A DNA stretch of 64,000 nucleotides from Eledone cirrhosa (Eukaryota). Positions 14,066 through 40,062 of this stretch are shown in pieces. The stretch lies in NCBI GenBank assembly GCA_964016885.1, contig OZ024741.1, positions 111,352,001 to 111,416,000 on the forward strand, written 5' to 3'. The number at the start of each line of letters is the position of its first letter. Position 1 is the stretch's first letter. The position numbers were made by a program, and so were the translations under genes. A model generated the notes under the pieces. The model saw nothing but the letters and a program-made list of their open reading frames with translations. It made no database searches and was not told the origin of the DNA.

Positions 14066-14611
14066 AAATCATTAACTTTATTAACCTGTTAAATCTTATT
14101 GAAAGCTCTTTTCCCTAATTTTTAATTTCTGAGTTTAGAACTTTAGTAGGGATTATCAAAACTTCGTAAATTTTCTGAAATTTTTTAACGTGATCTCTTA
14201 GAAAACATTTTTTTCTTTTGAAGGAATTTTTTAGGAAACTTTATATTTTTTTAGGAAACTTTATATTTTTATTTTTTTAGTCTCTTAATCTCTTCTGGTT
14301 TGTTAGGTTTATTGGGGCTTATAAGCTTTATGCACTTATTGAGGGATTTTCTAAGGTGCTTCTACGAGATCCCAAGTCTTTTACTTTTAATGCGTAAATT
14401 ATAAATTCTCTAATTTTATCCCTGACTCTTAGGCCCTTTTCAAATTCTCTTAACTCCCTATAACCCATCCCTTTTACAACTCCGACAACTAATATAAACC
14501 TTTAGAATATAGACCCCAAATATACAAGCGGAGCTGTTGATGTATACCACAATTTCAAACTGCTAATCTTGAGTGAAACGTTGATGTAAATAATGAACTT
14601 ACAATCACCTG

Positions 14612-14667
14612 TTATATGCCTTGAAAAGTCCCACCATATGGTCGGACGAAACGGCTGTCGGCAATAA
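14612..14667 (+). ncRNA. Putative type I minimal hammerhead ribozyme (U3-A8 core variant), of the kind associated with Penelope-like elements
   Basis: Stem I tgcc(14617-20)/ggca(14660-63); core TTGAAAA (14621-27); stem II gtcc..acca-ta-tggt..ggac; GAAA (14648-51); minimal stem III ac-ggct-gt; GTC cleavage triplet (14657-59). Confidence 0.65.
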
Positions 14668-14984
14668 ACTTGTTATAATGTCATAATAGTTCCTTTGTTC
14701 TTTTTCATTAATATTTCTGCTCTGCTTATACGCATAGAGCTTAACTAGCTACCGTCGCATATTTGGTAGGTTAGGCGTGATCATCGCGATTCACATACGA
14801 CCTACCATACATCTTGCTTATATATATATATATATATATTTATTATTATTCATATTTTGTATTTTCTTGTCGATAACGAAGCATAAGGTAACCACCTTGG
14901 TTCCAAAGAGGGGAAACCTCTCAATATTTGGGCTTTAAGCCCGAATATTCAGATTAATTTTTAAAAACTCAGAAAAAAAAAAAC

Positions 14985-16133
14985 ATGGAAAATTTCGACC
15001 TTGAAACAGTAAACAACGTACAGGTCAAAAGTTCAAAAACAGCCACTATAGATCTCACCACAGCTACAACTACTACTACTACAGACAAGCCTGTCGCCCA
15101 TCCTACTGAATACAAAAACAAAACACAAAAGTTACCATCACAACCTTTTGTGATAGTAGCAGTACCATCTCAAAATGGCATCACCATCACCACCACCACC
15201 GCCACCAACACAACAACTCAGAACAACAACGGCCATAACACCAACAGCCTCAATGTAAACAATGTAAACACTGATGGCGGAGGCAACAGCAACAAACAAA
15301 ACAACAACAACAAGAGCAACGGAGGCGCCACCTTTGCAGCGGCAGCTACGAAAACAAAGCGCTTTTTCAATGTAAATATTAGCGATAAGGAACAACAGTT
15401 GGCCCAGGCGTGGAGGTTAGTTAAACGAGAAAAGTCCTGGGCAAACCTGACCATCCCAGACGGGGAAATAGCGGCCATTCAAAGGAGGACGGTGTACTTT
15501 CGATGCATTTCAGTGCAGATACGCAAAGTAGAACTCGCCAGCCAAGCAGAGGTCGAGGCTGCTTTGAGGTGTATCGGAAGTGACATTGAGTACAAAGCAA
15601 GGGCCAAGCAGTTTGGTACCATCTCGGTACTGTTCAAAACTGAGGCCCTTGCTATTAAGCACTCGGTGACCCCTTGCAGAACGGAACGCATTATCATGCA
15701 CCCGTCCCACATGGGAAAAAGGACAGTAAAGGTCTGCATTCCCAGGATCCCACCAGGAATGAACATATGGTGGCTCCTGGGATGCGTAATTGAGGAGGGG
15801 ACAGACACTACCCTCCTAGATATCAAAAGGACAGAGAGAGAAGACTGGTCCGGAATGGATTTGGAGATTCTTCTCCAAATGAAACCAGAGGACATCAACA
15901 ACATCCCGGATTCTACCCGCCCGCAGGACGGGACAACAATCCAATTAATCACTGAGGGAAGAAGGCCGCACTGCTTTGTCTGCGGGGAAGCAACGCATCT
16001 GCAAGCCTTCTGCCCTCAGCTCAAAAATAAAAAAATGCAGGGGGTCGCAAACCTCCTTTGTTGCCAACGCCAGTGTCAGCACAGAAAGCTGTACCACCAC
16101 CACCAAAAACAACACCAACAAAGACACGGGTAA
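14985..16133 (+). pseudogene. Tx1-like ORF1 (gag-like, zinc knuckle), frameshifted C-terminus
   Basis: CFVCGEATHLQAFC fits Cx2Cx4Hx4C; T/N-rich N-terminus; the P/T/K-rich continuation runs in shifted frames to ~16899. Confidence 0.8.
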
Positions 16134-16928
16134 CCCCACCAACATCAAAAACAGCCGGACCACCACCAACACCGAAACCAATCCAAGGGGAAAACGAGGA
16201 AAGCTCTCCCACTCCCCTACCCCTCCAATTATACACATAGACAAAACAATAAATGCACACACAGACACAGATACACTCACAGCCACAGACCCTTTGTCTT
16301 CCAGCAGTGAAGATGAAGGAAAACCCAAAAGTGCCAAAAAACAAAAGAGAAAACTCAACCCCCCCAAAAAGCCCAACAAAACACAAATCATACACAACAA
16401 AAAATACAGACACCACTAACGCAAACACTTCCCCAATAACATCAGCACCAACATCAACACCACCCCCACAATCCCCGAAATGCAAACAACCTAAACAAAC
16501 ACAAGAACAAATAAACACACAGACATACCCGAAACAACACCACCAAAACCATCACAGTCACCAAAACGAAAACAAATAAAACCACACCAAGAAAATATTA
16601 AAAACTTCATGCTTGTCAGAAGGGCCAATGATAAACTGATGGCCCTCTTAGCACGAAGCGAGGACATTCAAACAGAGGGGGAAATCTTTGAAATGAGCAC
16701 ATTTTGCGTGTTAGAAGATTTGCTTTTGGTCCAAATGTCGCAAGATTCCTTCAAAGAAATTCGGGAGAGCTTTCCTCAAGACGTGGGAACCCCGAATGTG
16801 AAACCCACATCAAGACTTTTAAAGGGGTTCCCAAAAGAAACCCCACCAACCATGGAGATCGAACCGCCCGACCTTCACAAGACCCCGGGAGGTAAGTAAA
16901 CCTTCCCTCTCTCTTTTAGCTTGCCAAC

Positions 16929-19900
16929 ATGGCCATATTAAGAGTAGGAAGTTTAAATGTTCGTGACCTGGGGTCACCCTGGAAGCAGGGTTGCCTGCTC
17001 AACAACCTCAGGTCTCTTGAAACGGATGTGATTGCTGTCAGCGAGACCAGGATTTCCGACACGCGCGCACTAGCCCCCATTTCGATTATCAGATCTTCAC
17101 ATCTCTTAGCAGGCCGGGAATGGGAAGTGGGGTGGCAGTGCTGTTTAGGCCTGGATCTCGAGGTAAGGTCGATCTTCTGGGACCCAGATGGTAAGTTGGT
17201 GGTCCTGGATGTGAGCAGTAGCGAAGGTAGTGCCTTTAGACTGCTGGCCGTCTACACGCCTACTGGGGCTGAACAACTGGACTTCTTTAGGTGCCTGGAA
17301 ACCTTTCTGGGTACGCCTCGCCCTTTACTGTTAGCGGGGGACTGGAATGGCATCTTAGACGCATGCTGGGATTGTGTGGGAGTAGCTGACAGGAGCGGGG
17401 GATGTAAAAGCGTCAAGCACCTAATCAGCCAGTTCCAACTGTCTGACAGGTATCAACTAGATTTCCCCAATGCGCCAGTGTGGACGTGGACCAACCGCAT
17501 AGGGTCATCTAGATCATATATAGACAGGATCTTCATTAGGAAAATAGATAGAAATAGTGTAGGCTGCCCAATTTTTAAAACGGTCGCCTATTCAGATCAC
17601 AAATTTGTGATCTGTATGGTCGACCTAGATAAAACGTGTAGGTTGGAACCTGGTTACTGGAAGCTGAACATGTCATTTCCGGCACGTAAGGCTTACAGGG
17701 ACCGAGTCAACAATTTAGTTAAGCAAAAATTGACAGGGGATGATCATCAACAACAGATGGTGGGGGGCTCTCAAAAGAGAGATTAGAGTAACTTTGATAG
17801 AGTTCAGCAAAGAACTAGCATTAGAGAAAAATAGAAAGGAGGGGGAGCTGGTAGATAAGTTAGACGAGGCTATTTGTAGTGGCATTGCAACTGCCATGCT
17901 AGCGACGAGAATGGCATTAGACCATTTCTTCAATGCGAAACACGAAGGTTGCATTGTCAGAGATAAGGCGCGTGCAATGAGAAATGAGGGAACCAAAGCT
18001 GTTCGATGGGCCCGCGTGGCGGAGGCGCACCGTGGTAATAAAACCACAATTTGGTCTTTGGCGGACCGAGACGGACACGAGATAAGCGATTCCAAGCGGA
18101 TGTGTGAGGCCTTTTGCCAGCACTTTGCTCGGTTGTTCGAGGAGAGTGGCGGGTCAGAGAGAGTAGTGGATTTCAGTCCCTACCTTGACGGTTTGCCGTG
18201 CATCTCGATGGGCTGCGAAAGGCTGATTATTTCAGCCGAAATTCAGGACGCCCTTGTCGGCTGAATATGCCAGACTTGTTCTCTGATCTCCTCGAAGCGC
18301 TCTACTGCAACTGGCAGCAGAATGGGAGTATTCCCAGTTCTGTGAGCAGGGGAGTGGTGATGCTGATAAGGAAAGACGAGAATAAGAGGAATACATTAGA
18401 CAACTTCATAACTCTGCTCAACACAGAGTTTAAGATTTTGGTCAAGGTGTTAGCAAAGAGATTGGCGCTTGTCGTCGAGGATTTGGTTGGGGAGGCGCAA
18501 ACAAGCGCAATCCCAGCCAGATCCATACACGACAACCTCCACCTCATGCGATACATCATAGGGAGGGTAGTGTGTAAACCTGGATTCGGTGGGGTACTGA
18601 TCAATTTAGATCAATTGAAAGAATTTGATAGGGTCGACCATCAGTATCTGGAGGCTGTCCTCAAAGCAGCTGGCTTTAGCCCTGTCTTCAGAAGCTGGAT
18701 CGCTGCAATGCACAGCGGCACATGCTCGGTGGTCAAGGTTAATGGCCACCTCTCGGAACCATTTTGGCTCTCCTGATCTGTCTGCCAAGGGTGCCTTCTC
18801 TCTTTCCTTCTGTACGTATTGACTCTCGAGCCTTTACTGCGGAAGCTGGAGCTCTTGCAGGGCATCCCACTTGTACCGGGACATGGAAGGGTTGCATCGG
18901 CTTATGCAGATGACATCACCGTGATGGTGTTGGACACCTTAGAAATCGAGGTGGTTGGCAACTTATTGTAGGAATATGAAAGGTTGACGGGAGCAAAACT
19001 TAACTCGGAAAAGTCGGTGTGCTTGCAACTCGGCATCTGGAAAGGCAAGTCCATGCTATCCAACAGCATTGTTTGGCATTGGACGAACGGACCGGTAAAG
19101 TTGCTCGGGGTTTGGCTCCAGGTGGATAAGAATTGGGAAGGTAACGAGCAGGGTATCCAGTCTCATCCAAAAATGGGCTGCAAGGAAGCTGTCACTGAAA
19201 AGTCGCGCGGAGGTGACGAATGCATACATCGCGTCCGTCATCTACTAACGCCTGATGGTCATCCCTTGTCCCCCGTCCGTACCTCACCAAGTTGGAACGG
19301 CTCCCCTTCAAATTCTTGTGGGGGGGGGACAGGTTCCGTTGGTCAGTCGGTCTATCTGCTGCCAGCACTCTCTACTTGGAGAGCTGGGCATGCCATGGCT
19401 AATGATGCGAGGAAATGCGCTGAGGCTGCGACATCTCTAGATATTCTGCATAAACGTTGAATGGGTGTGGTCACTGTTTGTCAGACAGGCCTTTCCGCTC
19501 CGCAGCTCGTCTCTTTGACTAAGCTGCAGTCCTGGGTCACGAAGAGACCGAGACTGGGTGACTGGCAAATGGAATGTTGCCAGGCATTCACTGCCCTCTA
19601 ACAAGCAAGCAATGCGATCAGTGGAACTTCCACTCTCGAGTTCTATAGAGGATTAGTGGTGGGAAAGTGCAAGACACACTCAGAGAGGCTTTGGGCCTTG
19701 ACGAAGTCAAACTACCAGTCTGTTCCAGAGGACTTTCCAGAAATACCTCGCCTGGCAGTGTTACCGGGAGGGCACTGCCGGTTCGGGATAAACTCTACAG
19801 GCACGGAAGTGCCGTCAGACGGACCCACCCAAGATGCGCACAGAGCGACAAAACCATTCTGCACGCACTTGTCCAATGTCCGTGTATTACTGGCGTGTGG

Positions 19901-20085
19901 AGTTATGTCGAACAGCTACTGTCACGTGTAGAACGGATCTGGATATCGGCCGAAAGAGGTTATATGGTGGACCAGATTGAAAGGACTGAAGACACTTTTC
20001 TCTTCGGCCAATCCCTCATCAACTTCTTCAAGTTTCACCTGGAAAGGAAGGTGAGGGTGGAGAGAGAAGTACTGCCCCCCAGTAC
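16929..20085 (+). pseudogene. Tx1-like ORF2 (APE endonuclease, reverse transcriptase, zinc-binding domain), multiple frameshifts and stops
   Basis: SLNVR..SETR, GDWN, SYIDRIF, SDH, YWKLN; ITLLNTEFKILVKVLAKRL, DQLKEFDRVDH, AYADDIT (~18900); LPVRDKL..RCAQSDKTILHALVQC. Confidence 0.88.
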
Positions 20086-20614
20086 ATCTTTTCATACTCC
20101 TCTGTTTTGGCCTATTGGAGTAAATGTGAAAAAGAAAGTCACAGGTTAAGTTGGCAGAAGGTTCCAGTGCAATAGTAGTAAGGCGTAGGCTACTTACCTC
20201 AAAAGTTCATTCACACTCTTTCCACTAAGTTACTTTTTCTCTCGATCCCTGTCGGTGCAGTCCCTTGCGAATTTCTCGCGTAGGCCTGGTGTAGATTTGC
20301 ACCCGATCCATCTTCCCGATGCACATGTCCGCTTTGTACGGCCTTTGGAGGAAGGAGTGACCAGCAGTACATTGTTCGGTATTATTACGAAAAGGTGTAG
20401 CAGAGAATCCCGCGTGAACTAACAGCTCGGGAGGAAACTGCTTACCTTGAAGAATCATTTGCCATCGTTCTTGTCAACACTCCGTTTACTTGCTATTTGT
20501 TGGTCTACAGTTAGATGAATGGCACACAAAGGGTTAATGTTTATTGGCAAGAAGTTTTTTGAATAATAAAAGATGGGTTAAAGCGACCTAGAATGTATCT
20601 GTGTCATCATCATC

Positions 20615-30797: not shown

Positions 30798-30934
30798 ATC
30801 ATAAATGGGGATATTTCAGCCTTTTACCAAACCTAGTTAAGGACTATGGCTGGAATCCTGGCACAAAAATTCAAGAATGGTTTAGAGGTGTATTTTTGGA
30901 TAAAACTGGAAATCCAAACATTACATTCTGGGAA
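30798..30934 (+). CDS. Patatin-like phospholipase with EF-hand insert, first visible (internal) exon
   Basis: ctcctag|AT..GAA|gtatgt; HKWGYFSLLPNLVKDYGWNPGTKIQEWFRGVFLDKTGNPNITFWE; 5' end in phase 1, so upstream exons are required. Confidence 0.85.
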
Positions 30935-31079
30935 GTATGTATTTTCTAACTTCCTGATTGATTATTAGTGAGAAAAATATGTTATTATCCATTTGTCATC
31001 GTTAGCACCATTGTCATCATAGCTTCTGCTGCTGATATCATTGTTGAAAATGTACTCATTTGTCATGGATCTTGATCTT

Positions 31080-31530
31080 GTGTCATTTCATCTGTGATAT
31101 CTAGTTGTAGATTTCCTCTGTGAGATGTCATTGTTTCTGGTGTCATTTCATCTGTGAGATGTCATTGTTTCTGGAGTCATTTCATCTGTGAGATGTCATT
31201 GTTTCTGGAGTCATTTCATGTGAGATGTCATTGTTTCTGGTGTCATTTCTTCTGTGTGATGTCATTGTTTCTGGTGTCATTTCATGTGAGATGTCATTGT
31301 TTCTGGTGTCAATTCATCTGTGAGATGTCATTGTTTCTGGTGTCATTTCATGTGTGATGTCATTGTTTCTGGTGTCATTTCCTCTGTGAGATGTCATTGT
31401 TTCTGGTATCATTTCCTCTGTGACATGTCATTGTTTCTAGTGTCATTTCATCTGTGAGATGTCATTGTTTCTGGGGTCATTTCATCTGTGAGATGTCATT
31501 GTTTCTGGGGTCATTTCATCTGTGAGATCT
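31080..31530. repeat. Minisatellite, ~34 bp unit (tgtcatttcatctgtgagatgtcattgtttctgg) with 30 bp variants, about 13 copies
   Basis: Seen directly; intronic. Confidence 0.92.
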
Positions 31531-32205
31531 AGTTAGCTCAACTAATAGGAAGTAGTAATGATAGTTATTTTCTTTTTCTGTTAGATAAATTGAAGTAGAA
31601 CATCATTTTATAAACAAAGTTTTATCTTCAAAGACAGTATATACTGTTCATACATAGACAAGAAGATGTGAAAAAAATAGAAAAAAGTGTACAATTGTAT
31701 CAGTAGTAGTACATCCTGAATGTACTGTTCTGATATTCTCCAGTAAATAGTGTTATTCAGTTAACTCTTGTTCTAATGTACTGAACCAATTGAAAATGCT
31801 ATTTGAAGTTCTCTTCATGAGGATTGAGAAACCTGGTAAAAATCAAGTTCAATATCAAATTTGAATATGTATTTTATAAAGTAGTATGTTTTTCGAAGGC
31901 TACAAGAATGCAAAACGGACGGTAGATTTTGGAATAACTTGAAGTCTACGAAATTGTTAAAGACTCTAATGAGAAGCAGTTTCCCATAGTTTTCTGGCAA
32001 AGGATTTTTAGACTCAAAATATTAGAACACGTAAATAAAATAACAGGTGACACCAATATTTTCGTTGCCTTCAATTTATTCCAAAATTTACCATCCATTT
32101 TGCATTGTCATAGCATTCAAATAACATACTACTTTATACACGAACACAATGCTTCAAGCAAACTACAATACCCTCTTATATATTTTATTTTATTTTTTCT
32201 CCAAG

Positions 32206-32440
32206 CTATACACAGATTATAGTCGTGAATTATGTGTTGTTGTAACAAACGTTGATGACATGACTGTTGAGTATTGCCACCCAAAGACCACTCCACATAT
32301 GCCAGTACGCCTGGCTGTACGTATGTCAATGTCCATCCCTGGAATATTCAGTCCACCATGCTATTTCACTGATAATGGAGCAAAGAAGCATTATGTAGAT
32401 GGAGGACTGCTATGTAATTACCCAATCCATTCTTTTGATG
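32206..32440 (+). CDS. Patatin-like phospholipase exon with the catalytic Asp (DGG) motif
   Basis: ccaag|CTA..GATG|gtaagt; ELCVVVTNV..TTPHMPVRLAVRMSMSIPGIFSP..YVDGGLLCNYPI. Confidence 0.92.
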
Positions 32441-38927: not shown

Positions 38928-40062
38928 CAGTAAGTCTCCAACTTACAAACGAGTTACATACCAAGAGGCTGTTTGTTACTGGATTTATTTGTAAGTTGAT
39001 CGTCTAACATAGTACATACCAGTAAGCCCATATATGTTACATTGATTCTGTAGGTTTCCACATGAATGATATATATACAGTATATAGAGGTATACTAGCT
39101 GGCGCCCGGCTACCATTGGCGTGTTCTACAGCATCCATATATATAGCTGACGTACCTAGCTTCGTTTGGATAAACAGATGATAAGCCGTCTGTGTTGTAC
39201 AGTATTACTGTTGAAAATATATGGTATAGTATTACTGTTGAAAATATATAGTACAGTATTACTGTTGAAAATATGTACACGAATATATAATTAATTAAAA
39301 GTTGGTTAGAAGCGAAGTCAATGCTGACAGGCAGACAGATATTATAAGCACGCGACGTTATAGCTCTGTATCTATTTAAAAAGACAGAGTAAAAAAGAGA
39401 GAGGAATGTCGTACTATATATATTATATATAATAAAGTACCAATAATGTAGTCAGCTTTATTGATATAGATAAAGATTGACGATATACACAGAAATTTAA
39501 TCCATGATACATTAAAAAAAAAGATGATATTATATATAAACTGCAAAATATATGAATGTTTATTTAAGCGATCGTTAACCGGAAGTGTTGACATTTGAAA
39601 ATTTTAAAGAAGTGAATCTTTAGATAAACAAAATATCTTTAATCAATAATAACGTAATTTAGTAGACAAAAATATTCTTACTTTCTTCCTTGGAAAAAGT
39701 TACATCTATGGTGCAAATTTGGTGCTGTTTGGTCCAGCCGTTTTGCCAAAAGTTTGTTACATACATACGGCCGTCAGCTTTATTAATATAGATATAACAT
39801 GTAATAATGAATTTAAATACTGTAAAGCTAATGACAATAAATTGTCAAAGAAAAAAGTACTTTTTCAATTCTGCGAAAGCAAAATGGTATCCCATACTGT
39901 AGGTACGATTTCAGCTTGTTTTTATGCTGCAAAAGAAGGAACCCAGGGCCCAAAAAAGACCAAAGAAACAAACCCACCCCAGAAGAAAATTTTCTTTTCT
40001 TTGTGAGACTTCATATCTGTAGAAGTTCGTAAGTAAGATGTTCATAAGGTGGGGACTTACTG
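38928..40062. mobile_element. Tigger/pogo-like (Tc1-mariner) non-autonomous DNA transposon
   Basis: TIRs cagtaagtctccaacttacaaac and gttcataaggtggggacttactg, flanked by TA on both sides. Confidence 0.75.
39093..39793. mobile_element. Helitron-like non-autonomous element nested in the Tigger-like element
   Basis: Starts tactagctggcgcccggc; ends catacatacgg..tttattaatatagat; short internal tandem repeat (gtattactgttgaaaatat x3). Confidence 0.55.

Follow-up and report, generated by a model that had tools for sequence, protein, structure and literature searches.

A type I hammerhead motif with a U3-A8 core in the pseudo-LTR of a putative Hydra-clade Penelope-like retroelement of Eledone cirrhosa

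Hammerhead motifs are carried by several groups of Penelope-like elements (PLEs), and the closest described ones are those of Schistosoma and of the Hydra clade. Cervera and de la Peña (2014, PMC4209133) reported about 1,300 matches of hammerheads with a U3-A8 core in the Cercyon PLEs of Schistosoma, and they described minimal PLE hammerheads as having low activity, and as dimers only. Natural U3-A8 cores are also mentioned in PMC3088659, where earlier in vitro activity is stated. The Hydra clade was characterized by Craig et al. (2021, PMC8557442), who give RWK-like, DKT, CxCX5C, CxxC and CxH protein motifs and hammerheads that include one from an octopus element; in their File S2, 26/26 Hydra rows have C3-G8. 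Further work is related to these systems (bioRxiv 10.64898/2026.07.22.740005; PMC6155905; PMC2920678). We found no literature report of a Hydra-clade motif with U3-A8, and repeat libraries or the supplementary alignments of PMC4209133 may hold one.

The window analysed here is a stretch of 64,000 nucleotides of the Eledone cirrhosa genome (assembly GCA_964016885.1, contig OZ024741.1, positions 111,352,001 to 111,416,000, forward strand), and positions are given within it unless a locus is named. Its relevant features are as follows.

14066..14818, + strand: 5′-truncated Penelope-like copy, the end of a 3′ UTR plus a pseudo-LTR (82-93% to the 3′ end of full-length units)
14612..14667, + strand: possible distal helix I in two registers, overlapping the AATAAA at 14663-14668 (folding)
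14617..14663, + strand: type I hammerhead motif with a very short helix III (sequence, Rfam RF00163, shuffles)
14617-14620 with 14660-14663, + strand: strands of stem I (sequence)
14621..14627, + strand: core U3-U-G-A-N7-A8-A9 (UUGAAAA), N7 being A in the window and U in one subfamily
14628..14647, + strand: helix II, with 4 bp from G10.1-C11.1, then a C.C mismatch, 3 bp and a 4-nt loop
14628-14631 with 14644-14647, + strand: outer arms of stem II, GUCC/GGAC
14648-14651, + strand: GAAA
14651..14658, + strand: helix III palindrome ACGGCUGU, 2 bp in the monomer and an 8-bp self-complementary duplex in the dimer
14659..14660, + strand: predicted cleavage site after C17 of the GUC triplet, C17 being 14659 (hammerhead consensus)
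14719..14740, + strand: another hairpin, which has a 3′ bulge of 2 nt and is retained by the sister family with different inner pairs
14819..14840, no strand: (TA)n target tract bordering the insertion on its 3′ side (sequence, other copies)
30798..30935, + strand: patatin-like exon closing the ~47-kb intron that holds the insertion (GT-AG junction)

An earlier note on this DNA had claimed that every hammerhead element lies in register at these positions, and the sequence agrees. U4, G5, A6, N7 and A9, G12, A13 and A14, and an NUH cleavage triplet are all present, together with a Watson-Crick pair between positions 3 and 8 (U3-A8 in the window family, C3-G8 in a sister family described below). 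A strict descriptor, defined as a C3-G8 or U3-A8 core with 4-bp stems I and II and a palindromic helix III, matched once in the real window and never in 100 block-shuffled windows. Additionally, when eight sequences were compared, helices I and II, G10.1-C11.1 and A15.1-U16.1 were paired in 88/88 cells, against 21-50% in slid controls; the stability of the 81-nt region is ordinary (z -0.83). The Infernal-type check proposed in the note had a mixed outcome, as Rfam Hammerhead_1 (RF00163) does match 14616-14665 (20.1 bits, E 0.2) but stays under the gathering score of 34. This low score is a matter of the library threshold and the expected effect of a variant core, with no biological meaning of its own. 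A sequence search of the PDB gave zero matches. Elsewhere in the window, a weak U3-A8-like match at 39211, seen with a relaxed descriptor only and within a local repeat, is probably due to chance.

Some details of the proposed fold have to be modified. The inner part of stem II is ACC-AUAU-GGU, so that its loop has 4 nt (with differences among subfamilies) and not the 2-nt 'ta' originally drawn. The suggested extension of stem I to about 8 bp is possible, in that a distal helix I with a bulge could form (a contact between loops I and II was considered here), but there is no single register: two are near-equal in computed energy (-12.1 and -11.4 kcal/mol), and the register is not the same between families, the sister family having CUUUA/UAAAG with a 2-nt bulge at the equivalent place. 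Likewise, AATAAA is found where it had been placed, overlapping stem I and its distal extension, but a role in polyadenylation is unsupported. Poly(A) is absent from this place in the copies examined; the sister family reads AGTAAA or ATTAAA at this site, so that the sequences speak neither for nor against such a role. The hairpin at 14719-14740, ~60 nt past the cut site, is a candidate RT-recognition element.

The block that contains the motif is the 3′ end of a high-copy element coding for a reverse transcriptase (RT) and a GIY-YIG endonuclease, which bears out the supposition of a Penelope-like terminus. The window copy corresponds to the last ~750 nt of the unit, with the motif in its 3′ pseudo-LTR (pLTR). 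The genome-wide copy search that had been recommended, with a 161-nt query against the 3.0-Gb genome, returned 1,100 candidates (nearly all of the 40 scored were 99-100% identical), and a motif pattern leaving positions 3, 7 and 8 free had at least 814 exact matches, with 0 for the reversed control. Most of the 30 loci fetched share a common 3′ end followed by (TA)n, with variable 5′ truncation and often an inverted truncated neighbour, and RT and/or GIY-YIG coding sequence was met upstream, on the same strand, in 4/10 10-kb extensions. Full units (L071, L073, L075 and L076) consist of a pLTR with hammerhead, an ORF, a 3′ UTR of ~2.7 kb and a second pLTR with hammerhead, the distance from motif to motif being 5.2-5.9 kb. 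This 3′ UTR, L071:4457-7170 in one of them, is long for the Hydra clade and has an internal direct repeat and AT-rich stretches.

The open frame is up to 877 codons long (in L071, 863 aa counted from the ATG), contains FDI/YRDD, and has its ATG 277 nt past the core start in 8/8 upstream copies examined. Its protein motifs are RWR, DKT, YRDD, CNCR(R/K)KDKC (CxCX5C), CSLC (CxxC; intact in L072, mutated in L071) and CPH (CxH), with a single Cys between the equivalents of GIY and YIG. GIY-YIG was found by Pfam below the cut-off (E 6e-4), and RT was undetected by direct Pfam search of the ORF protein; Atlas neighbours scored 0.94-0.98, some of them with RVT_1 on 16-48% of members. The element has the organization of an EN+ PLE, that is, a single ORF with RT followed by a C-terminal GIY-YIG, pLTRs, partial tandems, inverted 5′-truncated copies and a hammerhead in the pLTR. 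It also shows the protein motifs and (TA)n insertion of the Hydra clade, and its unit exceeds the length of 'generally <3 kb', which is printed as a tendency and not as diagnostic. Assignment to the Hydra clade is thus suggested by motifs and by a match, made by eye and not a tree, to the printed Hydra-1_Obim protein. The Naiad clade was ruled out, as the endonuclease is C-terminal. The L1/Tx1-like LINE that follows from ~14870 was inserted separately and is lacking in other copies. It adjoins the (TA)n tract (~14870-20150, +) and has an ORF1 with a zinc knuckle, an Exo_endo_phos endonuclease (Pfam E 2e-5) and a broken RT.

The insertion had been placed on the sense strand of a patatin intron, and this is upheld. 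Upstream of the window there are patatin-like exons with FEGGG and GASAG motifs, at distances of 19.8 and 16.0 kb, respectively, and a further one lies at ~32140; the GASAG exon joins the one at 30798 in frame through a GT-AG junction and, if the assembly is correct, the insertion therefore sits in sense within an intron of ~47 kb. The patatin-like gene is present as three tandem copies ~106-110 kb apart (30798-32440 in the window, and genomic coordinates 111168654 and 111278030). This location, together with the presence of retrozyme-like repeats in the genome, could suggest that the motif is part of a non-autonomous retrozyme, or is itself a host element with a regulatory effect on the patatin-like pre-mRNA. 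However, the copies derive from a 5-kb coding element, of which they are truncated ends, and are not the non-coding short tandem units, with a hammerhead in each, that define retrozymes; the stretches fetched from patatin paralogs gave no listed match to 14066-14818; and the window copy is identical to hundreds of dispersed ones. Both proposals, the first of which the earlier note had left as an alternative, are consequently largely refuted, and we regard them as very improbable. Since the window copy is a lone truncated one with no partner hammerhead nearby within the window, an effect on the host is unlikely, and within the patatin-like pre-mRNA the copy probably has next to no activity.

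PLE-type ribozymes abound in this genome. Three 483-nt tandem units at L085:7119-8518 (-) are retrozyme-like, and every unit contains a hammerhead that combines C3-G8 with a long helix II. More families of C3-G8 hammerheads were seen, among loci retrieved for other purposes, at L033, L035, L037-L039, L058, L073, L082, L085, L088 and L090.

Regarding the core, 99 of the first 100 matches listed (of the 814) have U3-A8, 71 of them with A7 and 28 with U7. A sister family, reached through the endonuclease (protein identity 62% there and 56% over the ORF), has instead the core CUGA(U/A)GA, located 251-255 nt ahead of its ATG. A pattern that covers both families has 2,192 matches genome-wide: by hand count, the first 100 listed comprise 43 U3-A8, 57 C3-G8 and 0 mixed cores, and mixed cores amount to 15 in the whole set (12 C3-A8 and 3 U3-G8). 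These numbers agree with the compensatory nature attributed to U3-A8 from the window alone. As 26/26 Hydra rows in File S2 of Craig et al. have C3-G8, U3-A8 would be the derived state here, and it is likely, judging from these sequences, that it replaced the usual C3-G8 in this family.

The stem covariation that had been called for is present, but it has limited weight. In an alignment of eight representatives, double changes occur at the 3-8 pair and at the helix I pair adjacent to the core; the count of two doubly changed pairs was equalled in 284/500 shuffles and, as the covariation rests on two families, it represents essentially one evolutionary event. Between families, identity is 69% in the motif region and 46% in the 100 nt upstream, the latter being at the level of shuffles. 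Among 53 segments of the family, which may include copies fetched twice, the only shared polymorphisms within the motif are at N7 and at two loop II positions. Invariance extends beyond the 3′ side of the motif, as far as ~+86, so this conservation is not specific to the ribozyme.

It could be argued that the fold is kept as a structure, either an RT-binding or a translation-initiation element before the ORF, and that cleavage is negligible or incidental. In both families the motif indeed keeps a fixed position, 251-277 nt ahead of the ATG; type I hammerheads before viral ORFs promote cap-independent initiation, according to PMC13725137, and PLE motifs are weakly active in vitro (PMC4209133). 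Nevertheless, the conserved positions are the catalytic ones (G5, A6, A9, G12, A13, A14 and NUH) plus the 3-8 pair, and the viral case required the catalytic G. We therefore find a purely structural role quite unlikely.

This genome also has another, short element whose type I hammerhead carries U3-A8 (L039:9105-9160 (-), L039:3630-3690 (-) and L091-L120; 2,788 candidates). It has a 4-bp helix II with a CAAC loop, a 5-bp palindromic helix III and a distal helix I, and inverted copies and (TA)n ends are frequent. Its core is U3-A8 in 39/40 pattern matches and C3-G8 in the other; it showed no BLAST similarity to the family under study and no common ORF within 1.5 kb. It is conceivable, albeit doubtful, that U3-A8 became fixed on at least two occasions within a single animal genome, in the Hydra-clade family and in this unrelated short element, as a tuned core of lower activity. 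If so, enough uncut RNA would be left for integration, and the C3-G8/U3-A8 pair would constitute a natural experiment on PLE hammerheads.

Folding computations favour an inactive monomer and a viable dimer. In the predicted monomer, the pairs of helix II have probabilities of 0.98-1.0 and helix III one of 0.02, and the minimum free energy structure is not a hammerhead (-14.5 against ~-12 kcal/mol), the palindrome being sequestered by the 5′ strand of helix I. The octamer pairs with itself across 8 bp at -9.7 kcal/mol, in line with the self-complementarity previously noticed, and a double hammerhead of two strands is computed at -38.7, compared to -29.0 for two monomers; a competing intermolecular helix II duplex reaches -40.8. 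The low, dimer-only activity of minimal PLE hammerheads, as given in PMC4209133, fits this computed folding.

On the basis of sequence and modelling, we consider it probable that the motif is a Hydra-clade PLE pLTR hammerhead, likely changed from C3-G8 to U3-A8, whose likely weak, dimer-only cleavage trims tandem precursor RNAs. In this scheme, transcripts of pLTR-ORF-pLTR copies would carry two motifs, and a double hammerhead would form through the pairing of their palindromes. If a part of this RNA were cleaved after C17, a 5′ end ~240 nt ahead of the ATG would result, and integration would proceed via RNA with an uncut 3′ motif, with priming on (TA)n DNA through TA-like microhomology ~160 nt past C17. 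The copies examined keep the predicted cut site intact and run ~160 nt (some ~55 nt) past it to TA-like sequence. A search for genomic 5′ ends at the cut site yielded one pattern match, which is a 1-nt deletion, and hence none that is genuine; a control site, looser by one position, gave six matches, 4/6 of which pass the strict form. The genome thus bears no mark of cut RNA, which counts against the proposed cleavage. Contigs from three sequencing runs of a single sample contained no joints either, although RNA ends would not be visible in such contigs. Because copies keep the site and none starts at the cut, the integration template would be either uncut at its 3′ motif or religated.

Religation is central to the model of Cervera and de la Peña, in which both tandem motifs would cleave and RT would proceed round a ligated circle, here of 5.2-5.9 kb, to produce the pLTR and tandems. 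This would be consistent with the head-to-tail junction, which is invariable among the upstream copies examined, with full tandems and intact motifs, and with the fact that no copy begins at the cut site. By contrast, one circle should give identical pLTRs, and in 4/5 upstream-downstream pairs the two pLTRs of an insertion disagree at one shared polymorphism or more, which argues against one circle copied twice; at L087, sites diagnostic of the subfamily differ both 5′ and 3′ of the cut. Some of these differences may stem from gene conversion or recurrent mutation, and we think the circle unlikely. The two pLTRs of the L087 insertion (L087:1403 and 6752) belong to different subfamilies, which suggests template switch or gene conversion. 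Finally, a 5′-UTR intron across the tandem junction was rejected, as the strong donor of L071 is a minority variant and the sister family is without it.

To sum up its standing, the motif is a genuine hammerhead, but its type and the retroelement clade that carries it are both known, and it represents neither a new ribozyme class nor a new core variant. The earlier note had implied that U3-A8 was novel; it had been printed before in PMC4209133 and PMC3088659 and, being already reported in Schistosoma PLEs and stated to be active in vitro, the core is not new. What deserves attention is the sister pair with C3-G8 and U3-A8 in one genome, the long 3′ UTR and the second, unrelated U3-A8 element. 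The pair offers matched young families with open ORFs that differ at the 3-8 pair and can be assayed side by side, which bears on the role of PLE hammerheads. The family also illustrates that searches with Rfam or CUGANGA descriptors overlook motifs by the hundreds to thousands in a single genome.

Compared with the systems mentioned at the outset, the present family resembles the Cercyon PLEs of S. mansoni in its type I motif in the pLTR, U3-A8 core, palindromic helix III, long helix II, short helix I and mostly single truncated copies. It differs from them in PLE family and host, in that there is no extra nucleotide between A9 and G10.1, in the great uniformity of its copies, and in having a C3-G8 sister family in the same genome. 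The metazoan non-LTR retrozymes (PMC7229834) also have type I motifs with a weak palindromic helix III that are thought to be dimeric, but retrozymes are made up of non-coding tandem units with lengths of a few hundred nt, whereas the element that ends in the motif studied here is coding and 5 kb long. With Hydra-1_Obim and other Hydra-clade PLEs, the present family shares RT followed by a C-terminal GIY-YIG, the protein motifs of the clade, (TA)n targets, and a sense hammerhead with a palindromic helix III located 100-200 nt from the 3′ end. In contrast to the described families of that clade, generally <3 kb and with C3-G8 in 26/26 rows of File S2, the Eledone family has units of 5.2-5.9 kb with a 2.7-kb 3′ UTR, a U3-A8 core, and a motif sequence different from that of Hydra-1_Obim.
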